From contig JAUSGI010000008.1 in NCBI GenBank assembly GCA_030649135.1, positions 96,001 to 160,000 on the forward strand: a stretch of DNA of 64,000 nt, written 5' to 3'. The notes beneath the pieces are model-generated. The model was not told the origin of the DNA. It saw nothing but the letters and a program-made list of their open reading frames with translations, and made no database searches. Numbering within the stretch: position 1 is the first letter of the stretch; each line of letters starts with the position of its first letter. Below are positions 5,362 through 14,088 of this stretch, piece after piece. The position numbers were made by a program, and so were the translations under genes. The DNA comes from a bacterium (GTDB lineage: Bacteria > Patescibacteriota > Minisyncoccia > Phycocordibacterales > Zambryskibacteraceae).

Positions 5362-7119
5362 ATGAATTATAAAGAATTGCAAGTGCTTCTCTTGAAGCGC
5401 TTCAGTATGCCCAAGGAACGTTTAGTACGCGGAATTCTGCGTTCTTTCTCCATAGCGGAAAAGGCGGTGTTCTTTTTCTTAGTCTCGGTCTTTGTATTTT
5501 CCGGCACCACTCTCCTATGGAAAGTGAGCAGTACCTATCTCGTCGAAGTACCTACCGAAGGCGGCACCCTGACGGAAGGCGTAGTCGGTAATCCGCGCTT
5601 TATTAACCCGGTGCTGGCTATATCGGAAGCTGACAAGAATTTGGTAGCTCTGCTTTACTCCGGCTTGGTACGCGTCACCCCGGAAGGCCAGACGGAAAAT
5701 GATTTGGCGGAAAAAGTGGAAATTTCAAATAATCGCCTAGTTTATACGGTTCAAATTCACCAAGATGCCCATTTCCATGACGGTACGCCAGTGACGGCTG
5801 ACGATGTAATTTTTACTATCCAGAAAATTATTGACCCGAGTATTAAAAGTCCCAGAAGGGGCAATTGGGATGGGGTTGAGGTCGAGAAAATCGACGACAG
5901 AACCGTCTCGTTTACTCTAAGACAGGCATACACTCCCTTCATCTACAACTTGGCGGTAGGCATCTTGCCCAAACATATTTGGAAAAATGTTTCCCCCGAC
6001 GAGTTTTCCTTTAGTCAGTTTAATACTCTTCCCGTCGGTTCCGGACCGTATCAGGTTGAAAGTGTCGAGAGAAATTCCGGTGGCATACCCAATTTATACA
6101 AATTAATCCCCTTTGAGAACACGCCCGGTAAAACACCCTTTATCAAAAATCTAGTGTTCAGATTTTATCCTAGCGAAGCCGAATTGATTATGGCCCATAA
6201 CACAAATGCGGTAGAAAGCCTTAGCGGTATCTCGCCAGAGAGAGTACAGGAGCTCGAAATAAACGATTCCCGCATTGTTTCCTCCGCTCTACCTCGCGTT
6301 TTTGCCGTCTTTTTCAACCAAAGTAAATCCAAGGCGCTTTTAAATAGAGAGGTGCGCCAAGCGCTTGACCTTGCCAGTCCCAAGGAAGAAATAGTCGAAA
6401 AAATTTTCGACGGCTACGCTACCGTTATCGACGGCCCAATGCCCGCCGGCATATACTCTTGGACCAATACCGACAAGAACAGACCTCCACTTGACCAGAG
6501 ATTAGAGACAGCGCAAGCATTACTTGCCAAAGCAGGTTGGAAAATGAACACGGAGACGGAAGTGCTTGAAAAGAAATCCGCTTCTGGTACAATGACCTTG
6601 TCGTTTGCAATCTCTACCGGTGATGCCCCCGAACTTCAACAGGTAGCGAATGAGCTCGTTGCTCAATGGGGAAAACTCGGCGCCAAGGTCAATGTTCTCG
6701 TCTTCGAGACTGGTGACCTTAACCAAAACGTCATACGCCCGAGAAACTTCGACGCCCTTCTCTTCGGTGAGGTAGTAAGCAGAGATGCCGACCTGTATCC
6801 ATTCTGGCATTCTTCTCAGAGAGCCGACCCCGGGCTCAATATCGCTCTCTATGCCAATAGTCGGGCCGACAAGGAACTCGACAATGCCCGAAGTGCAAGT
6901 AACCCGCAAGCGGCGGAAGAAAGTTACAAGGCCTTCACGAAAGAGTTGGAGGCCGATATGCCGGCAGTCTTCCTCTATACGCCAAGTTTCCTTTATGTCG
7001 TACCGGAAAAAATAGCGGCCTTGAGTCTAAACTCTCTGACGGTTGCTCAAGATAGATTCCTGGGTATTAGAGAATGGTATATCGAAACAGATAAAGTTTG
7101 GAAAATATTCGTTAACTAA
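5362..7119 (+). CDS. ABC transporter substrate-binding protein, family 5 (peptide/nickel type), N-terminal TM anchor
   Basis: Length and SBP_bac_5-like segments (GSGPY..., the EYAGTAPELQQV-like motif and others) after a TM anchor. Confidence 0.7.
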   Translation: MNYKELQVLLLKRFSMPKERLVRGILRSFSIAEKAVFFFLVSVFVFSGTTLLWKVSSTYLVEVPTEGGTLTEGVVGNPRFINPVLAISEADKNLVALLYSGLVRVTPEGQTENDLAEKVEISNNRLVYTVQIHQDAHFHDGTPVTADDVIFTIQKIIDPSIKSPRRGNWDGVEVEKIDDRTVSFTLRQAYTPFIYNLAVGILPKHIWKNVSPDEFSFSQFNTLPVGSGPYQVESVERNSGGIPNLYKLIPFENTPGKTPFIKNLVFRFYPSEAELIMAHNTNAVESLSGISPERVQELEINDSRIVSSALPRVFAVFFNQSKSKALLNREVRQALDLASPKEEIVEKIFDGYATVIDGPMPAGIYSWTNTDKNRPPLDQRLETAQALLAKAGWKMNTETEVLEKKSASGTMTLSFAISTGDAPELQQVANELVAQWGKLGAKVNVLVFETGDLNQNVIRPRNFDALLFGEVVSRDADLYPFWHSSQRADPGLNIALYANSRADKELDNARSASNPQAAEESYKAFTKELEADMPAVFLYTPSFLYVVPEKIAALSLNSLTVAQDRFLGIREWYIETDKVWKIFVN

Positions 7120-7132
7120 AATTTAAGGAAAC

Positions 7133-8905
7133 ATGCTTAATACATTTACGAGTGGTCTGCGCCACAAAAATATTCATAGGAGATCTAACGCACCCATGGT
7201 GGCGAAAAAGCCTCATGACATCATTCCGACATTGGGAGAGAGCATTAGAATCATCCCGCTCGGCGGGGTGGAAGAAATCGGCAGAAACATGACCGTCATA
7301 GAATACGGCGAAGATATCATAGTCATTGATGCTGGCATTAAGTTTACCGACTATGAGACGCCAGGGGTCGACTATATCCTGCCTAATATTAAATATCTCG
7401 AGGAACGCAAGGACCACATCCGCGCCTTGGTGATTACTCACGGGCACCTCGACCACATCGGCTCCATCCCCTACGTCATTGACCGCCTTGGTAATCCGCC
7501 AATCTATACCCGTGAGTTTGGGGCCCTATTGATTCAGAAGAGGCAGGTGGAATTTCCCCACCTGGCGCCGCTTGATATCAGGATTGTCGAAGCCAACGAC
7601 ACTTCCATCCCGTTAACCGCCAATCTCAAGGTGCGCTTTTTCGGTGTTACCCACTCTATTCCGGATTCCACCGGTGTCATCATCGAGACCCCTTACGGCG
7701 ACATCGTCAATACCGGAGACGTGCGTATAGAGAACGAAAATGGCGTACCGGACCAGAGGGAAATAGAGCATTACAAAATGTTCAAGGACCGCAATATTCT
7801 GCTCTTTTGTATGGACTCGACAAACATCGAACAACCGGGCTTCTCGCTATCGGAAACTTTTATTTTGAAAAACATAGACGGGATTGTGGCCGCCGCGCCC
7901 GGCCGGATTATCTTAGCCACCTTTGCTACCCAAGTGGAGAGGGTGATTGAGTTTATCAAGATGGCCCAGCACTATTCGAGAAAAGTGATTATTGAAGGCC
8001 GCAGTATGAAAACAAATGTCGAGATTATCAAACATCTTAATCTCGTCGAAACCAGCCATATCATTCCGATTGAAGATACTACGAAGTATCCTCCCAACAA
8101 GATTATGATTATCACCACCGGCGCCCAAGGCGAAGAATTCTCCGCTCTGATGCGCATGTCCAACAAGACCCACAAATTTGTCCGTCTGGAACGTTCCGAC
8201 ACCATTGTGCTCTCTTCTTCCGCTATTCCCGGTAATGAACGCGCTATTTCCAAGCTGAAAGATAATCTCTATCGTCATGATTCAAAAATTATCACTTATC
8301 TTGATTCGGACGTGCACACCTCGGGCCACGGTAGGCGCGGTGAATTGGAGTGGTTACACAAGCAAATGCCGTACAAATATTTTATGCCGGTGCATGGCAA
8401 CCACTACAGACTAAAGATGCACGCCGAACTAGCCGCGAGACTCGGCTGTCCGCGCGAAAACATTATCGTGCCGGACAACGGCAGTATTCTCGAAATTCAA
8501 GACAAAGGCGCTAAGTTTGTTAAATTACGGGAGAAAGCGCCCTCGGAAGATATGGTGGTTGAGGGTCTTTCTATCGGAGATATTTCTGACGTAGTAATCC
8601 GAGACAGAAAAATGTTGGCGGAAGACGGTATTTTCGTAGTTATAGCCCTGGTGAACACGCGCACGGGCTATCTCAAAAAATCACCGGACATTATCGCCAG
8701 AGGTTTCGTCTACCTGCGGGAATCGCAGGAATTGCTTTCCGAAGCGCGGGGCATCATTAAGCGCTCCATCGAAGGCACCACCGTGGGTATGAATCCGATT
8801 AATTTTGATTACGCCAAGAACGCAGTCACCGAGGATGTCTCCCGGTTTCTCTTCCAACGCACAGCCAAAAAACCGATAGTTATTCCGGTCATCTTAGGAG
8901 TATGA
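7133..8905 (+). CDS. rnj: ribonuclease J (beta-CASP metallo-beta-lactamase RNase)
   Basis: IIPLGGVEEIGRNMTVIEYGEDIIVIDAG and HGHLDHIG motif. The true start may be the internal MVAKK (about 7196). Confidence 0.9.
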   Translation: MLNTFTSGLRHKNIHRRSNAPMVAKKPHDIIPTLGESIRIIPLGGVEEIGRNMTVIEYGEDIIVIDAGIKFTDYETPGVDYILPNIKYLEERKDHIRALVITHGHLDHIGSIPYVIDRLGNPPIYTREFGALLIQKRQVEFPHLAPLDIRIVEANDTSIPLTANLKVRFFGVTHSIPDSTGVIIETPYGDIVNTGDVRIENENGVPDQREIEHYKMFKDRNILLFCMDSTNIEQPGFSLSETFILKNIDGIVAAAPGRIILATFATQVERVIEFIKMAQHYSRKVIIEGRSMKTNVEIIKHLNLVETSHIIPIEDTTKYPPNKIMIITTGAQGEEFSALMRMSNKTHKFVRLERSDTIVLSSSAIPGNERAISKLKDNLYRHDSKIITYLDSDVHTSGHGRRGELEWLHKQMPYKYFMPVHGNHYRLKMHAELAARLGCPRENIIVPDNGSILEIQDKGAKFVKLREKAPSEDMVVEGLSIGDISDVVIRDRKMLAEDGIFVVIALVNTRTGYLKKSPDIIARGFVYLRESQELLSEARGIIKRSIEGTTVGMNPINFDYAKNAVTEDVSRFLFQRTAKKPIVIPVILGV

Positions 8906-10053
8906 TGCGATTCATACCGGTTTTCGCGGCCAGCCTCTTTCTCTCCGTACACTTTGGCAGTACCCTTTACTTCCATTCTTCTTTCTTAAACGATTACTTC
9001 AAACCTAATGTCGTCAGTTTTCTCTTTCTCCTTGGAGCCCTCGGTAATATTTTTCTTTTTTTATTTGCTCCTAAGTTGATTCAACGATTCGGCAAGCGTC
9101 CTCTGCTCTTTTTTTCCCTCGTCCTAACCGCCGCCAGTACGTTTATTTTCGCTTTAACTATCACCCGACCAGTGATTATTTTTGCTTTTATCGTCTACAG
9201 TAGTTTCCTGCCCATGGTTTATTACTGCCTTGATGTTTTCCTGGAAGAACTATCGACAAATGCCAAGACGGGGGAAATCCGGGGTATTTATCTTACTGTA
9301 TTTAATGCCGGCATAGTCGTGGGACCGCTTATTCTGGCGATCTTGGCGCAAGAGGGCCCGCCTACTAAATTTCTGTATTTAGTGGCGGGTCTGTTGTTAA
9401 TACCGCCGGCGATACTAGCGCTTTTTTCTTTCAAATCTCAACAGCCTAAAGCGCACAGCCCCTACCACCATTCCCTGCGATTGCCATTCGGCGATTGGTG
9501 GCATTCCAAAAACATTCAACGCGTTACTTTAGCCAGACTAACACTCGAATTGTTCTTCGCCTTTATGGTTATCTATGTTCCAATTTATCTCCATACTGGG
9601 CTTGGTTTCGCGTGGTCAGAACTTGGTATTATTTTCACCGTTATGCTTCTGCCTTTTGTGCTGTTCGAGTGGCCAGCAGGCGAACTTGCCGACCGTCTCC
9701 TGGGGGAAAAAGAGATTATGAGTGCCGGTTTTTTCATTACTGGCATATCTCTGCTCATCATGCCTTTTATAGGGAAAGTATTTTGGGCATGGATGGCTAT
9801 CCTTTTTATCTCAAGAGTTGGAGCGAGTCTAATCGAGGCGATGACCGAAAGTTATTTCTTTAAACATATCAACGCGCGTGATACCGGTCTGATAAGCATT
9901 TTTCGCTTAACCCGTGCGTCCGGTTTCGTTTTGGGCGCCATAGTCGCCACTCTGACTTTAAATTTTTTCTCGTTCGATAAAATTTTTTTTGCTCTGGCGG
10001 TGATAGTCTTCTTCGGTCTCAAACAAAGTTTGTCTCTCAGAGATACGCGGTAG
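8902..10053 (+). CDS. MFS-type transporter (12 TM predicted)
   Basis: Polytopic hydrophobic 383-aa ORF with the GKRPLLF loop typical of MFS. Confidence 0.6.
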   Translation: MMRFIPVFAASLFLSVHFGSTLYFHSSFLNDYFKPNVVSFLFLLGALGNIFLFLFAPKLIQRFGKRPLLFFSLVLTAASTFIFALTITRPVIIFAFIVYSSFLPMVYYCLDVFLEELSTNAKTGEIRGIYLTVFNAGIVVGPLILAILAQEGPPTKFLYLVAGLLLIPPAILALFSFKSQQPKAHSPYHHSLRLPFGDWWHSKNIQRVTLARLTLELFFAFMVIYVPIYLHTGLGFAWSELGIIFTVMLLPFVLFEWPAGELADRLLGEKEIMSAGFFITGISLLIMPFIGKVFWAWMAILFISRVGASLIEAMTESYFFKHINARDTGLISIFRLTRASGFVLGAIVATLTLNFFSFDKIFFALAVIVFFGLKQSLSLRDTR

Positions 10054-10054
10054 A

Positions 10055-10096
10055 AAAATTTATAAAAAAATAGGACCCGCCAAGTAGGCCGGGTCC
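10055..10096 (-). terminator. rho-independent terminator of the 62-aa island gene
   Basis: On the minus strand, hairpin GGACCCGGCC-tactt-GGCGGGTCC is followed by TATTTTTTTATAAATTTTT. Confidence 0.7.
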
Positions 10097-10133
10097 TGTG
10101 GCAGTTTGGGGAGGTCTGCCAACCTTTACTTCT

Positions 10134-10322
10134 CTACTCGGCGGGTCGGAACTTACGACGAGGCCGACTTTGTTTCAGGTCTTCGTCACACCCTACCATC
10201 TCCCTTTCTATCACATCCTGGTCAGAGAGGTCTTCATCCTCCGACCCATGCATCAGTCCAAAACCCTTAAGGAGTCGAATTTCCTTACTCGAAGGATCTA
10301 CGCCTGTCTTTCTCTTTTTCAT
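10134..10322 (-). CDS. hypothetical small acidic protein (62 aa), island gene 4
   Basis: Perfect SD (tAAGGAGcccagATG), own terminator, no recognisable domain. Confidence 0.55.
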   Translation of the reverse strand: MKKRKTGVDPSSKEIRLLKGFGLMHGSEDEDLSDQDVIEREMVGCDEDLKQSRPRRKFRPAE

Positions 10323-10445
10323 CTGGGCTCCTTATGTCCTGCTTCCCTTTCGATTATGTTCAGGGTGAAGGCTTACAGACACTAACGCTCTGTCCTTTAG
10401 AGTGGCATGAACAAGCTAGTTTGTCAATTAGTTGTAATCGTTGTA

Positions 10446-10478
10446 TAGAAAAAGGACCCTCCATGCTGGCAGGGTCCC
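10446..10478 (-). terminator. rho-independent terminator of the 76-aa island gene
   Basis: On the minus strand, hairpin GGACCCT-gccagcatgg-AGGGTCC is followed by TTTTTC. It is homologous to the hairpin at 11444-11480. Confidence 0.7.
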
Positions 10479-10555
10479 GTTGTGAGTTGAGGCCGTGTCC
10501 TCAACTCGTTTGTACTTAGGCGTGACATCGGCACGCATTGGGATCTGAAACTCTG

Positions 10556-10786
10556 CTAGTCCCCGATCGCCCCACTTCGTGAGAACGGGCGAGAGACGCC
10601 CGGTAACACCCGGGACGGATCCATCCCGAGGCGCTGCCTCAGCCACGCGACCCACTCCGGATAGCTCGGAGTGAGAAGCACGACGACCTCGTCGTAGGTC
10701 GGCGTGTCCCCAAGCACGTCGCACACGGCTGGCAAAAGAAGCCGGCGTGTTTCCTTGTCGAGTCTCCGACCCGATGCGTCATTCAT
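10556..10786 (-). CDS. hypothetical protein (76 aa), island gene 3, high GC
   Basis: SD GAGGAGaaggcaATG. The protein sequence MNDASGRRLDKETRRLLLPAVCDVLGDTPTYDEV... has no recognisable domain. GC3 is high. Confidence 0.55.
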   Translation of the reverse strand: MNDASGRRLDKETRRLLLPAVCDVLGDTPTYDEVVVLLTPSYPEWVAWLRQRLGMDPSRVLPGVSRPFSRSGAIGD

Positions 10787-11019
10787 TGCCTTCTCCTCAT
10801 CGCGCTTTGCGCGACTTTAAACATTTAGCAGTGCGTCCTCTTGCGAGGCCTATACGCACTGCGGTTCAGCCCCCTCTGTGCGGGGAATCGATACTTGATT
10901 ATATTTTCTTTCTCAAAGAACTAACTGTTTCGCCCTTTCGGACTCATCAGCGCAGATACACATCTGCGAACAGCGGGAAGTTTTGCTGAGATACTTCCCG
11001 AAACTCTGGGTTTGCACGG

Positions 11020-11340
11020 TTACCCCTTCTTCTTCTTGCTACCGGCACCCATGCCAGCGGCCATCCGGCGCTGCTCCTCCGCGCGCTCGCTCCGGTGGGC
11101 GAGGTAGCGCTTGTGCGCCGCCTCACGGATGGAGGCCGAGAACTCGGTCTCCTTCCGACGCCGCTCGGACAGCATGCGCCTGGCGCACGCCAGGCGTGGC
11201 CGCCAGAAATCGGAGGTCGCGAGTTGCTTGTCGAGCTCGACCGCGGCGATATCCGCCGCAACGGTCGAAGTGGCGACCTGCACCGGCAGGGTGCAGGCCA
11301 GAAACTCTATCACTCGGCCAATGGAGCGTGTCGCATTCAT
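11020..11340 (-). CDS. hypothetical Arg/Lys-rich protein (106 aa), island gene 2, high GC
   Basis: SD tAAGGAGaacgccATG, consensus promoter upstream, ends ...AGMGAGSKKKKG. GC is about 70%. Confidence 0.6.
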   Translation of the reverse strand: MNATRSIGRVIEFLACTLPVQVATSTVAADIAAVELDKQLATSDFWRPRLACARRMLSERRRKETEFSASIREAAHKRYLAHRSERAEEQRRMAAGMGAGSKKKKG

Positions 11341-11401
11341 GGCGTTCTCCTTATCGTGCCTCCCCTTCGTCTATACTTAGGGTGAGGACTTTCTAGCTAC
11401 A

Positions 11402-11430
11402 ATGATAGCATAATACAACTTATTTGTCAA
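11402..11430 (-). promoter_or_regulatory. consensus sigma70 promoter TTGACA-N17-TATCAT for island gene 2
   Basis: Reverse complement: TTGACA aataagttgtattatgc TATCAT, about 55 nt upstream of the SD. Confidence 0.55.
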
Positions 11431-11443
11431 TGGCTTTAAATAG

Positions 11444-11480
11444 TTAAAAGTAAAAGGGCCCTCCGTGTAGGCAGGGCCCA
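11444..11480 (-). terminator. rho-independent terminator of island gene 1
   Basis: On the minus strand: GGGCCCT-gcctacacgg-AGGGCCC followed by TTTTACTTTT. Confidence 0.65.
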
Positions 11481-11498
11481 GTCGAAACGCCACCTAGT

Positions 11499-11894
11499 CT
11501 AGTAACTGGTGGGGAAAGCAGATGTCAGCGCCTCCCCCTGGTCGCTTGCCGGGTTGGGGTTGAACCAAACCCGAGAGATGGACCCATGGCCGATGTGATA
11601 CACGCCGGCCAGAGTACATGAGCCATCCCGCTGTGCGGGGTGATGTACGAACACCCCGAAACGCAGACGGGCCAGCGCGGCCGCGATGCAGAACGGCACA
11701 TCCGCGACGGCATAGACGAAGCCATCGCCATGCTCGCGGACGTAGTCCGCGAGCCCATCCGTGGTGACGAACACCGTGGGGTCCTTCACGATCTCCACGT
11801 AAACACCGTGGAGAGTTCGCATCGCCCGCCGCTGTGTGGGCGACATGTCGTAACGCGATAACCAATAAATCCTCCCGATGTAAATTCTGTTCAT
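11499..11894 (-). CDS. hypothetical protein (131 aa), island gene 1, high GC
   Basis: Start MNRIYIGRIYW... preceded by GGGGGAaccATG. No recognisable family. Has its own promoter and terminator. Confidence 0.55.
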   Translation of the reverse strand: MNRIYIGRIYWLSRYDMSPTQRRAMRTLHGVYVEIVKDPTVFVTTDGLADYVREHGDGFVYAVADVPFCIAAALARLRFGVFVHHPAQRDGSCTLAGVYHIGHGSISRVWFNPNPASDQGEALTSAFPTSY

Positions 11895-11959
11895 GGTTCC
11901 CCCACTCTGCCTCCCATTTCTCGGAGGGCTATAGGTAATACAACCTTGGTCTGCTCTCA

Positions 11960-11988
11960 CTAATAGCACAGCACAATTCTCTTGTCAA
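11960..11988 (-). promoter_or_regulatory. sigma70-like promoter TTGACA-N17-TATTAG for island gene 1
   Basis: Reverse complement: TTGACA agagaattgtgctgtgc TATTAG. Confidence 0.45.
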
Positions 11989-12002
11989 CAGCGTCCATAA
12001 AT

Positions 12003-12437
12003 CTAATACACATTTAGGAGTTTGAAAATTGGAGCAAGGAACGGGTCGAAATGAGTACCGTAGACGGTGGCGCCGAAGAGTCCGCCGGCAACCACAATAA
12101 AAAATAGTCCGATAATAGCCAAGGGAATTATGATGACTGGCAAGAGCATTTTAGACCATCTAACGTAAGCCAGAGAAATAATGCCGAAGATAGTGGCAGT
12201 GATAAGAATAAAAATTTTATACATGGTTACCAGAGGACTATCCCCCGCCAAATTAGCGCTCATGTAAGCGGTGACAACCGTAGCAATAGCGCCCAGCTCA
12301 CCGACTACGAGCAAAGTTCCTTTGATAGGGAGCCAGTGCGGAGAGTCCAATAATTTTTTGAAACGCATTAGTTCAAAAACAGTATAAGTTGTCAAAAATG
12401 CTATGGGGTAGTGTATCACCAGTGGATGAATGTCCAT
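12003..12437 (-). CDS. polytopic membrane protein (hypothetical)
   Basis: 144 aa with 4 TM segments, directly downstream of pyrG on the same strand (pyrG 12439-14088 lies upstream of it). Confidence 0.5.
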   Translation of the reverse strand: MDIHPLVIHYPIAFLTTYTVFELMRFKKLLDSPHWLPIKGTLLVVGELGAIATVVTAYMSANLAGDSPLVTMYKIFILITATIFGIISLAYVRWSKMLLPVIIIPLAIIGLFFIVVAGGLFGATVYGTHFDPFLAPIFKLLNVY

Positions 12438-12438
12438 T

Positions 12439-14088
12439 TTATTTCTTATTTTTTATTATAGCTTTTATAAAAGCCGTGAAAAGAGGGTGGGGGGAAAGAG
12501 GTCGCGCTTTGAACTCCGGATGAAATTGCGTTGAGAGATAAAATGGGTGAGCATTTTTAGACAATTCAGCTATTTCGCAAAGTCTCCCGTCTGGAGACAT
12601 GCCGGAGAAAATCATGCCTGCCTTATTAAGTCTTTCAATATAAGCAGGATTAACTTCAAAACGATGCCTGTGTCTCTCGGAAATTTTATTTGTCGCGTAG
12701 GCCTTGTGGGCAAGAGTCTTTGGTTTAAGAACCGCCGGCCAAGCACCCAGGCGCATGGTGCCGCCAAGTTTACCGTCTTTAATTTTATCTTTCTGCTCTT
12801 CCATGACATCTATCACCGGGTATTTGGTTTCTTTATCTACTTCCGTAGTGTGTGCACCCTTGAGACCGGCCACATGCCGTGCGTACTCCACTACCGCCAG
12901 TTGCATACCGTAACAAAGCCCGAGATACGGAATCTTCTTTTCCCTCACAAACTTAATTGCGCTGATAATGCCCTCCACGCCGTTGGAACCAAAACCACCC
13001 GGCACTATCACTCCATCGTAATTTTTAAGTTCACTTACTTTGCGTTTACCCGTCTCGTATTCTTTGGCATTTATCCAGACTAGTTTAGGCTTCACGCTTT
13101 GCCAATAGGCAGAGAATTTGACAGCTTCTATAACCGACACGTAGGCATCGGAGAGCACAAAGTCTCCGGTGTCGAAATATTTACCTACTACCGCAACCCT
13201 CACTTCCCTCTTGGCGGACTTGGTTTTAGAAACAAATTTTTTCCAGGCGACTAAATCCTTTTTGCGTGGTTTGAGACCGAAGTGGCCGAGAATCCTTTGA
13301 CTTAACCCGTCCCGTTCAAAATTTATCGGCACATCATAAATACTTTCGATATCCGGCGCTGCAATGATATCCTCACTCGACACGCCCGTGGCCAGAGCGA
13401 TTTTCTCCTTCCGCTTCTGGTCAATCGACACCTCGCTTCTTGCGATAATCATGTCCGGTTGGATACCGTAGGAATTGAGTTGGCGGATAGCATTTTGGGT
13501 AAGTTTGGTTTTCATCTCGCCGAGCTTGCCCGGCACAGGAAGATAAGAGACCATCACGAACATAACGTTTCTTGGTTCTCGAATTTTCATTAGGCGGGCT
13601 GCTTCGAGAAAAATGGCATTCTGATATTCGCCGACCGTACCGCCGATTTCGAGTACGGTAATATCCGCATTAGTTTTAGAAACTGAATGATGAATACGAT
13701 TGAATATCTCTTCCGTTACGTGATAGACCGGTTCCACACACTTGCCGTTGTATCCAAGAGCGCGCTCTTTATCTATAACATGTTTAAGAATCATGCCATT
13801 GGTCAGATAATTTTCCGAAGGCATATCGGCATTGAGGAAACGTTCGTAATTGCCCATATCCTGGTCAGTCTCAAGACCGGAATCCAGCACAAAGACTTCT
13901 CCATGTTCGACCGGATTCATGGTGCCGGCATCGACATTTAAATAAGGGTCAGCCTTGATCAGACTGACCGAGAAACCTTTTGACTGGAGAATGGCGCCAA
14001 TAGAGGAGGTGGCGATACCTTTGCCGACTCCCGACATTACTCCGCCCACGACAAAGATATATTTATACCGACCTTCCTTTTTTCTCAT
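12439..14088 (-). CDS. pyrG: CTP synthase
   Basis: KYIFVVGGVMSGVGKGIA N-terminus plus a GATase domain with GLCYGMQ. Confidence 0.97.
   Translation of the reverse strand: MRKKEGRYKYIFVVGGVMSGVGKGIATSSIGAILQSKGFSVSLIKADPYLNVDAGTMNPVEHGEVFVLDSGLETDQDMGNYERFLNADMPSENYLTNGMILKHVIDKERALGYNGKCVEPVYHVTEEIFNRIHHSVSKTNADITVLEIGGTVGEYQNAIFLEAARLMKIREPRNVMFVMVSYLPVPGKLGEMKTKLTQNAIRQLNSYGIQPDMIIARSEVSIDQKRKEKIALATGVSSEDIIAAPDIESIYDVPINFERDGLSQRILGHFGLKPRKKDLVAWKKFVSKTKSAKREVRVAVVGKYFDTGDFVLSDAYVSVIEAVKFSAYWQSVKPKLVWINAKEYETGKRKVSELKNYDGVIVPGGFGSNGVEGIISAIKFVREKKIPYLGLCYGMQLAVVEYARHVAGLKGAHTTEVDKETKYPVIDVMEEQKDKIKDGKLGGTMRLGAWPAVLKPKTLAHKAYATNKISERHRHRFEVNPAYIERLNKAGMIFSGMSPDGRLCEIAELSKNAHPFYLSTQFHPEFKARPLSPHPLFTAFIKAIIKNKK

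Follow-up and report, generated by a model that had tools for sequence, protein, structure and literature searches.

A variable islet of mostly GC-rich small genes, probably moron-like cassettes, with a shared expression scaffold in a groundwater bacterium

Introduction

What kind of DNA lies behind an abrupt rise in GC content between two ordinary housekeeping genes, and how are the small genes inside it expressed? The question is raised by a 1.9-kb islet in the genome of an uncultured groundwater bacterium, located within a stretch of 64,000 nucleotides (nt) of contig JAUSGI010000008.1 (positions 96,001 to 160,000; the whole stretch is hereafter called the window). Four small open reading frames (ORFs), numbered ORF1 to ORF4 in the direction of transcription, lie there on the minus strand. 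According to database labels, the host bacterium probably belongs to a lineage of the Candidate Phyla Radiation (CPR), whose genomes are small and in which the acquisition and expression of accessory genes are little known. An earlier note, made from the sequence alone, had read the islet as a string of four monocistronic orphan genes of foreign composition. Its observation is partly confirmed, being largely real but overstated, and the locus is more structured than first read; its interpretation as a whole is partly supported.

The explanation regarded as reasonably probable is that the locus is a hypervariable islet of horizontally exchanged, moron-like expression cassettes, exchanged among related groundwater genomes. 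The kind of locus, a genomic islet or a set of moron-like cassettes, is already known. The islet would be built of single-gene cassettes in which a lineage-specific scaffold surrounds mutually unrelated, mostly GC-rich coding sequences (CDSs). The proposed parts of this scaffold are an extended -10 sigma70-type promoter (TTGACW..TGCTAYYA), a hairpin 5' leader that ends in a strong Shine-Dalgarno (SD) sequence, and a terminator (..CCCTGCC..GGAGGGNCCTTTT).

Composition and integrity of the islet

In 240-nt windows, the GC content of the islet peaks at 0.71, the strongest rise in the window, while the remainder of the window averages 0.466 (standard deviation (sd) 0.045) and reaches at most 0.633, over a tRNA. 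The four minus-strand ORFs of 131, 106, 76 and 62 aa are present where they had been placed. A GC content of 60-70%, which had been attributed to the entire 1.9 kb, applies to the CDSs of ORF1 (0.60), ORF2 (0.67) and ORF3 (0.64), but not to ORF4 (0.50) or to the five spacers of the islet, which at 0.46-0.50 are host-like. The flanking genes, said to have 40-48% GC, measure 0.41-0.50. An operon of CTP synthase and a membrane protein lies upstream of the islet, and the MFS transporter gene on the other side is convergent with it; the neighbours comprise GroES/EL, a solute-binding protein, RNase J, MFS, CTP synthase, a tRNA and peptidases.

The comparison of codon usage that the earlier note had proposed as a check supports its compositional claim for three of the four genes. 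The GC content of third codon positions (GC3) is 0.74 in ORF1, 0.83 in ORF2 and 0.75 in ORF3, which places them 3.6-4.9 sd above the native reference (43 ORFs of at least 150 aa in the window, GC3 0.50 +/- 0.068, maximum 0.67), whereas ORF4, with a GC3 of 0.51, lies at 0.1 sd. The first and second codon positions (GC1 and GC2) of ORF1-3 are shifted as well, not GC3 alone. In each of these three ORFs, GC3 exceeds GC1 and GC1 exceeds GC2, a pattern lacking in the competing overlapping ORFs, which supports the named reading frames.

Chimeric assembly, with breakpoints at about 10.06 or 11.99 kb, had been named as a condition that would undermine the observation. Logan contig L001 (SRR13727527, 6,863 nt) is 100% identical to positions 7080-13942 of the window and spans both junctions, which are thus reproduced independently of the metagenome-assembled genome (MAG), so that chimerism is unlikely.

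Variable gene content within a shared expression scaffold

The same junction holds different genes in a sister species, recovered when GTDB species genomes were scanned with the MFS protein (contig L002, identical to the JGI contigs L010 and L011). The MAG of this species is labelled 'Saccharibacteria', and its proteins are 63% (MFS), 85% (RNase J), 89% (CTP synthase) and 75% (membrane protein) identical to those of the window. Its junction carries, in about 1 kb, two small same-strand genes of 102 aa (63% GC) and 92 aa (54% GC) that differ from those of the window, and the MFS/membrane-protein junction is therefore a variable spot. In more distant relatives (L003-L005), RNase J is kept beside MFS and the membrane protein and CTP synthase have no match. 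The view of the islet as accessory, compositionally foreign cargo rather than core metabolism is supported. The small genes at the sister junction are high in GC too, and ORF2 and part of ORF3 occur again in another high-GC island of a different genome (see below). In the 92-aa ORF of the sister species (L002:9832-10110, minus strand), which has no Pfam match, an HxxxCxxC motif recalls zinc-binding anti-sigma factors, and the N-terminus has a hydrophobic segment.

The non-coding parts of the cassettes recur. The near-consensus TTGACA-N17 promoters that had been claimed for ORF1 and ORF2 are present, with TATTAG and TATCAT as their -10 elements, and the pattern TTGACW..RTGCTAYYA has just two matches in the 64-kb window, both inside the islet. 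Hairpins with a T-run likewise follow ORF1, ORF3 and ORF4, as had been noted. Canonical SD sequences had been assigned to all four genes; they stand 5-6 nt before the ATG of ORF2 (AAGGAG), ORF3 (GAGGAG) and ORF4 (AAGGAG), but ORF1 has only a weak G-run (GGGGGA/GGGAGG). The leader and the 3' double hairpin/terminator of ORF3 have homologues around the 102-aa gene of the sister species, with 85-87% identity over the matching segments; the leader of this gene starts with GATTCCCCGCATAGAGAGGACTGGA, followed by two hairpins and an SD, and the encoded protein is unrelated to ORF3. The terminator core CCCTGCCnnCAnGGAGGGnCCTTTT also occurs after ORF1, with a diverged copy after ORF4. ORF2 and ORF4 have short leaders that are paralogues of one another.

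The scaffold extends to a second locus, the region downstream of ftsH, in contigs from Hainich groundwater (L008) and from JGI metagenomes (L009/L012). A scan of JGI/ENA metagenomes with a 25-mer terminator pattern returned five contigs, two of which are the sister species. In L008, a 96-aa ORF of 62% GC is framed by a promoter (TTGACT..ATGCTACTA) and the same long leader on one side and by the same terminator on the other; in L009, a 36-aa membrane peptide lies between a TTGACA-N17-TATCAT promoter and the same double hairpin. Altogether, the terminator is common to ORF1, ORF3, ORF4 and the 102-aa, 96-aa and 36-aa genes; the promoter type to ORF1, ORF2 and the same three genes; and the long leader to ORF3, the 102-aa and 96-aa genes and a 278-aa gene of contig L019, described below. 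The 3' double hairpin of ORF3 is 85-91% identical to the cassette 3' ends in L002, L008 and L009. Within the 64-kb window, the scaffold motifs are confined to the islet.

An all-against-all comparison found similarity in the promoter/leader and the terminator only. No two cassette CDSs were found to resemble one another, except at the C-terminus of ORF3 and in a borderline match between ORF1 and the 278-aa protein, and paralogy among these CDSs was rejected on that basis. No integrase, transposase or recombinase family match was obtained among the ten neighbouring ORFs scanned, covering about 8 kb on either side, and no att-like repeats flanking the islet were convincing. Given this lack of an integrase, transposase or att-like repeat nearby, the cassettes are proposed to be gained, lost and swapped by homologous recombination via the conserved scaffold sequences.

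Several further observations concern the second locus. The cassette locus downstream of ftsH is noted for L008:1606-2012 and L009:3142-3546; on its opposite side, ftsH has the tmRNA gene. The 36-aa hydrophobic peptide (L009:7070-7180, minus strand) has a basic tail (MEICYTFTWWNLLSFAGGFVGAVILKTLRSRRRYRT) and resembles a type I toxin. Upstream of the L008 cassette promoter stands a terminator-like remnant on its own, GGCCCTACTTAGGGCTCTTTT, which suggests a lost neighbouring cassette.

ORF2 and its protein family

All four genes had been regarded as orphans. For ORF2 this is not so: a search of 5.8 billion proteins returned six homologues, 50-71% identical, in MAGs and metagenome contigs, and a profile search found 14 members among 1.84 billion cluster representatives. 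Only one of the relatives carries a taxonomic name, that of a Candidatus Sungbacteria MAG. The remainder come from unclassified MAGs and metagenomic contigs, and the absence of any actinobacterial label runs against the suggestion of transfer from an actinobacterial host to its symbiont. The family combines an N-terminal helical module with A[TS]STxAxDI, present in two or three copies in some members, an F/YWRPRLxCARRML motif, and a long helix with a basic tail (RxxRAxENRxxAxxGxGxKKKQ). The helical module, the motif, the long helix and the basic tail are all found in ORF2, and 34 columns are invariant in the alignment of seven sequences.

Between ORF2 and its six homologues, codon positions 1+2 are 65-77% identical and position 3 about 50%, and 23-31 codons differ synonymously only; the identities by codon position indicate that the protein is under purifying selection. 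The AlphaFold2 (AF2) model of ORF2 is all-helical, with a predicted local distance difference test score (pLDDT) of 87.5, and Foldseek found no significant match for it in PDB (best E 2.3) or BFVD (best E 1.5). With its helical fold and its long basic C-terminal helix and tail, the protein could be a nucleic-acid binder, although this is a low-confidence guess. ORF1-4 have no Pfam, PHROGs, NCBIfam or PADLOC match, and at E <= 1 PADLOC also gave none for the 102-aa and 92-aa proteins of the sister species. The cassette proteins of the relatives likewise have no Pfam, PHROGs, NCBIfam or PADLOC match, the sole significant domain being DUF6234 in a 131-aa protein of L019.

The ORF2 homologues all have about 0.68-0.70 GC and a GC3 of about 0.8, in host genomes of 0.42-0.62 GC. 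One contig whose own genes have 0.60-0.70 GC (L007) carries an ORF2 homologue behind a consensus promoter and adjoining a tRNA, so that high-GC lineages carrying the ORF2 family do exist. Just downstream of this homologue, a low-GC (0.41-0.51) island adjoining a tRNA encodes a 486-aa protein in which a LexA DNA-binding domain is fused to an S24 peptidase and an N6/N4 DNA methyltransferase (L007:7672-9132).

A hammerhead ribozyme motif between ORF2 and ORF3

No terminator follows ORF2; a type III hammerhead ribozyme motif stands there instead. It was found in an Rfam search of 2.2 kb with 37.5 bits and an E value of 6e-6, and no other RNA family was detected by the Rfam scan of the region. The cmscan alignment and the sequence show a complete core, with CUGAUGA, GAA, the A15.1-U16.1 pair and U10969 as H17. 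Stem I has 7 Watson-Crick bp and a GUGU loop, stem II has 4 bp (G-C, U-G, C-G and C-G) and a GAAA loop, and stem III, at the open end, has 5 bp, one of them G-U. Canonical pairs border the core (1.1-2.1 C-G and 10.1-11.1 G-C), and the motif has the three helices, with no mispairs beside the core, by which bacterial hammerheads were accepted in a previous survey (Perreault et al. 2011, PMC3088659). Known bacterial hammerheads lie beside individual genes or small groups of genes in DNA acquired horizontally (prophages), and their supposed role is to divide long transcripts into mRNAs the length of a gene (PMC3088659). A limited full-text search of the literature found no paper on hammerhead ribozymes in the Candidate Phyla Radiation.

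The motif alters how the transcription of the islet is to be read. The earlier note had taken the genes as four monocistronic units; this does not hold for ORF2 and ORF3, as no consensus promoter was found for ORF3 and a hammerhead motif, not a terminator, separates the two. The 'two hairpins without a T-run' reported after the second gene are present, and correspond to the 3' hairpin of ORF2 and stem I of the hammerhead, after which comes the three-hairpin leader of ORF3. Since ORF3 lacks a consensus promoter, the two genes are probably carried on one transcript, which would start at the ORF2 promoter and would probably be cut by the hammerhead. The most plausible role of the ribozyme is thus to separate a dicistronic ORF2-ORF3 transcript. 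Cleavage after U10969 would leave an ORF2 mRNA with a 2',3'-cyclic-phosphate 3' end, which the hairpin abutting stem III would cap, and an ORF3 mRNA that begins with a 5'-OH and continues into the structured leader. The two messages could in this way obtain separate fates without a terminator/promoter pair.

ORF3, its leader and a fuller high-GC module

Homologous leaders precede unrelated CDSs at four places: positions 10787-10893 of the window, L002:9546-9641, L008:4867-4966 and L019:1925-2022. Their conserved form consists of P1 (UUCCCCGCAYAGAGGGG), a variable P2, P3 (CGCG-CAAAG-CGCG) and the SD. P1 and P3 are conserved across the four distinct sequences, with few variable positions, and P2 is not alignable. 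This three-hairpin leader has no Rfam match and, judging from these four sequences, may be a new cis-regulatory RNA.

ORF3 itself, like ORF1, has only self-matches among the 5.8 billion proteins. Its last 17 residues, however, match the C-terminus of the 278-aa protein of L019 (82% identity in protein, 81% in DNA, E 3e-7, z 10 against shuffles); the 278-aa protein ends in MLPGVSRPFSRRGGIGD and ORF3 in VLPGVSRPFSRSGAIGD. The orphan status claimed for ORF3 therefore holds in part. The match also touches, marginally, the refuting possibility that the four ORFs are pieces of one known gene. ORF3 appears to derive from the 278-aa gene by shortening or recombination.

The context of that gene is a fuller version of the ORF2-ORF3 part of the islet. 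L019 is a Logan contig whose sequence is also found in L020-22 and in the Sungbacteria contig L006. It contains a 2.3-kb island of 0.55-0.72 GC flanked by DNA of 0.42-0.49 GC, in which a 131-aa membrane protein (DUF6234, E 3e-6), an ORF2 homologue, a 430-nt spacer, the long leader and the 278-aa ORF follow one another. The leader is 78% identical to those of L008 and L002, and the 278-aa protein has no PDB sequence match. The presence together of an ORF2 homologue, the same leader and the 278-aa C-terminus indicates that the linkage of ORF2, leader and ORF3 is inherited. At least this part of the islet would accordingly derive from a high-GC module, found more complete in the Sungbacteria-type genome, and in the window the hammerhead stands where L019 has the long spacer and would have replaced a spacer of roughly 300 nt. 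No hammerhead was found beside ORF2 homologues elsewhere (L002 and L006-L022).

The 430-nt spacer has features of its own. At L019:1619-1654 it includes a 7-codon upstream ORF (uORF; MLATGMA / MLPLVMA / MLATNME) with its own SD, AAAGGAGG, which also occurs in L006, L013 and L016 just after the stop of the ORF2 homologue. Behind the uORF comes a conserved structured stretch (CTTGGCC..GGGGAAG..CCAAG), and the two together resemble a device of the attenuator type that precedes the leader and the 278-aa gene; the window has no counterpart.

An intergenic repeat, here called the 'punctuation' element, recurs between small GC-rich genes at L019:1826-1925 and 2866-2965, L018:1-75 and 505-625, L016:300-400 and L006:6550-6617. 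It consists of a long GC-rich hairpin followed directly by a second hairpin, in which the closing stem (GCUUC/GAAGC) is conserved, the inner stem varies and the internal loop reads AACU/UGA; its folding z-scores range from -2.2 to -6.3, and it has no Rfam match. The hammerhead of the window occupies a position equivalent to this element, between CCCGCU and GUUAGUUCUUUGAGAAAG. A 17-mer of the element has 24 matches in IMG/VR, which lack the rest of the element and are in line with about 50 estimated chance hits.

ORF1 and ORF4

ORF1 and ORF4 are orphans, as had been stated. The AF2 single-sequence model of ORF1 is unreliable (pLDDT 47.5), and its resemblance to the 278-aa protein of L019 (residues 115-172) is borderline (E 0.011, z 4.1, reached by one of 300 shuffles) and is not relied on here. 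In the sister species a terminator adjoins MFS at the same position as the ORF4 terminator. In the last codons of ORF4 (10134-10147), 13 of 14 bases can pair with the 3' arm of the ORF4 terminator (10074-10087), and this alternative pairing could compete with terminator formation. ORF4 and ORF2 have consecutive locus tags (Q7R69_03065/_03070) and consecutive protein accessions (MDO8590228/29). The coordinates of all features are given in Table 1.

Table 1. Features of the islet, in order of transcription (positions in the window)
Feature	Position	Strand	Description
Variable islet	10054..12002	minus	Between the stop of the MFS transporter (10053) and the stop of the DUF2231-like membrane protein (12003)
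ORF1 promoter	11960..11988	minus	TTGACA (11988-11983), N17, TATTAG (11965-11960), upstream TG; type TTGACW..RTGCTAYYA
ORF1	11499..11894	minus	131 aa from ATG; 156 aa from GTG 11969
ORF1 terminator	11447..11480	minus	GGGCCCTGCCTACACGGAGGGCCC, then TTTT; shared terminator family
ORF2 promoter	11402..11430	minus	TTGACA-N17-TATCAT, extended -10 TG; 11/12 consensus matches
ORF2 5' untranslated region hairpin	11358..11389	minus	CCUCACCCU..AUAGA..GGGGAGG, just upstream of the AAGGAG SD
ORF2	11020..11340	minus	106 aa, 67% GC, isoelectric point 10.6
3' hairpin of ORF2	10975..10999	minus	GGGAAGU-N11-ACUUCCC, predicted; abuts hammerhead stem III
Type III hammerhead ribozyme motif	10922..10976	minus	Rfam RF00008; predicted cleavage after U10969, between 10969 and 10968
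ORF3 leader	10787..10893	minus	P1 (UUCCCCGCACAGAGGGG, 10871-10889), variable hairpin P2, P3 (CGCGC-AAA-GCGCG), GAGGAG SD
ORF3	10556..10786	minus	76 aa, 64% GC; apparently not annotated in the GenBank record
ORF3 3' double hairpin	10446..10502	minus	GAGGACACGGCCTCAACTCAC (10482-10502), then terminator GGGACCCTGCCAGCATGGAGGGTCC, then TTTTT
ORF4 promoter-like site	10396..10427	minus	Perfect TTGACA (10427-10422), degenerate -10 CACTCT
ORF4	10134..10322	minus	62 aa, highly charged, host-like composition (50% GC)
ORF4 terminator	10069..10093	minus	CCCGGCCTACTTGGCGGGTCCTATT..; 15 nt from the MFS stop

Alternative explanations

Several findings weigh against an islet of horizontally exchanged cassettes. 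No empty site was seen at the junction, so insertion is argued from differing content only. The sharing of the scaffold comes from few distinct genomes, namely the window, one sister species and two or three contigs. ORF1, ORF3 and ORF4 have no homologues, their status as genes being judged from codon-position composition and SD/ATG context alone, and ORF3 is apparently not called as a gene by GenBank. The hammerhead scores below the Rfam gathering threshold (37.5 against 48.5 bits) and is absent from a scan at that threshold; it has the less common GUU as its cleavage triplet and short loops (GUGU and GAAA), it occurs in one genome only, without comparative support, its cleavage activity is predicted, and the minimum free energy fold of the ORF2-ORF3 spacer pairs stem III alternatively. 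More generally, the activity of the ribozyme, the mechanism of exchange and the function of the leader are deduced from a handful of genomes. The third codon positions of the ORF2 homologues are, moreover, near saturation, yet their GC3 remains about 0.8 in low-GC genomes. Such a composition is not explained by a simple old transfer followed by amelioration; either the genes have arrived repeatedly and recently from a GC-rich reservoir, or selection acts on their composition.

The latter possibility is central to the proposal that these are native, fast-evolving, lineage-specific small genes, whose GC and GC3 are kept high by selection (e.g., on expression or mRNA stability) and whose scaffold arose through local tandem duplication. 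The persistence of a GC3 of about 0.8 despite near-saturated synonymous sites speaks for it, as do the host-like GC content of the spacers, the paralogy of scaffold elements within the islet and the two highest-GC3 native genes, at 0.62-0.67, which show that some native genes are GC3-enriched. However, CDSs on the same scaffold have no detectable similarity while their non-coding flanks are 85-95% identical, which is hard to reconcile with duplication; GC1 and GC2 are shifted too; the scaffold occurs downstream of ftsH in other genomes; and ORF2 with its leader is found in a distant genome in an unrelated neighbourhood. A native origin is consequently considered quite unlikely. A phage origin, which the earlier note had raised, is likewise judged unlikely. 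It would make the cassettes phage-derived morons, or a decayed prophage remnant from a temperate phage of which only units of the lysogenic-conversion type survive. The layout resembles the definition of a moron, which includes its own promoter and terminator, a differing GC content and extra DNA relative to relatives (PMC3594210), the last of these being represented here by different cassettes at the sister junction and by no empty site; bacterial hammerheads, too, are concentrated in prophage contexts (PMC3088659). Direct support was nevertheless not obtained: no phage gene, integrase or att-like repeat lies in or near the islet, no PHROG or BFVD fold match was found, tblastn of ORF1-3 against 50,697 phage genomes (INPHARED) gave no match, and scans of IMG/VR matched neither the ORF2 family, the 278-aa protein, the terminator (two patterns), the leader nor the exact hammerhead. 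Such absence is weak evidence, as phages of these lineages are poorly sampled.

What the products do is a separate matter, and a toxin/immunity, type I toxin-antitoxin, defence or anti-defence set, suggested earlier in its toxin/immunity and anti-defence forms, would be a functional claim compatible with the structural explanation. Variable islets of small, strongly promoted genes are typical of conflict systems, the leaders are structured, and the 36-aa membrane peptide of L009, with its basic tail and type I toxin-like character, is carried by the same scaffold; little credence can be given to this role, however, since no product has a PADLOC, Pfam or NCBIfam match, no toxin or antitoxin fold is recognisable, the sole conserved gene pairing is that of ORF2 with the leader-carrying gene, and ORF1-3, being soluble and 76-131 aa long, differ from type I toxins. 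That the genes came from a high-GC actinobacterial host is very unlikely: apart from the high GC itself and the 'Saccharibacteria' label of the sister MAG, nothing favours it, whereas no actinobacterial relative of ORF1-3 was found in the sets of 5.8 billion and 1.84 billion proteins, and the promoters, leaders and terminators that accompany the CDSs are low in GC and common to these groundwater genomes. Least probable is an artefact, in the form of a chimeric assembly or of GC-rich non-coding RNA misread as ORFs. GC-rich DNA does yield long ORFs in many frames, and five to six overlapping ORFs (70-137 aa) lie over ORF2 and ORF1, but the order GC3 > GC1 > GC2 is found in the named frames only, ORF2 is conserved at the protein level, the Logan contig is identical across both junctions, and the sister species has the same kind of islet there. 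The non-coding RNA reading of the GC-rich segments was rejected on account of the codon-position pattern and the lack of an Rfam match in them.

Relation to known systems

The moron concept (Hendrix/Juhala) has been reviewed by Cumby, Davidson and Maxwell (2012, PMC3594210). Like phage morons, the islet comprises single-gene units with their own promoter and terminator and a differing GC content, forming variable DNA between conserved genes. A promoter and a terminator of its own are found for ORF1 and, with a weak -10, for ORF4, while ORF2 has a promoter only and ORF3 a terminator only; a differing GC content is found in ORF1-3 and not in ORF4. Unlike phage morons, the islet does not reside in a phage or prophage genome but in a housekeeping chromosomal region without phage genes, and its promoters, leaders and terminators are homologous among units and with cassettes at another locus.

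The hammerhead resembles the bacterial ones described by Perreault et al. (PMC3088659) in its canonical core, its three stems and its location between small genes in acquired DNA. It differs from them in being a single copy rather than a cluster, in lacking an adjacent integrase, in its type III architecture with minimal loops, in its score below the gathering threshold and in being predicted, and it occupies the position of a longer conserved spacer in the related module.

Integron arrays share with the islet tandem, unrelated small ORFs, each with a conserved structured 3' element, and a content that varies among relatives. In contrast to integrons, no IntI is encoded near the islet, its 3' elements are T-run intrinsic terminators rather than attC sites, and its cassettes have consensus promoters. 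In variable gene families such as the vsp/vlp-type loci of mycoplasmas, a conserved promoter and 5' untranslated region precede divergent tandem CDSs, which are recognisable paralogues with shared signal peptides and repeats. The CDSs of the islet, unlike these, have no detectable similarity to one another, and their base composition is unlike that of the flanks.

A bolder and rather doubtful possibility is that the islet belongs to an undescribed, integrase-independent cassette 'socket' system of groundwater CPR bacteria. GC-rich ORFs would there be recombined via conserved non-coding ends and expressed under a new leader RNA (P1 UUCCCCGCAYAGAGGGG, variable P2, and P3), and the transcripts would be punctuated by a hammerhead at this locus and by a double-hairpin element (GCUUCAACUGAAYYC ... 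GUUCURAGAAG) in related modules.

Implications

The locus is probably a recombination hot spot in which unrelated small genes occupy a reusable expression scaffold, and in which a probable hammerhead takes the place of a terminator/promoter pair. One of its genes belongs to a rare, confidently folding family whose GC3 stays near 0.8 whatever the genome that carries it. If the scaffold does mediate the exchange of cassettes, it would offer these bacteria a simple, integrase-free route for the turnover of accessory genes. If it does not, the locus would still be a clean example of moron-like islets outside prophages, with several unusual features: a hammerhead, a conserved leader and, in related modules, a repeated intergenic element.

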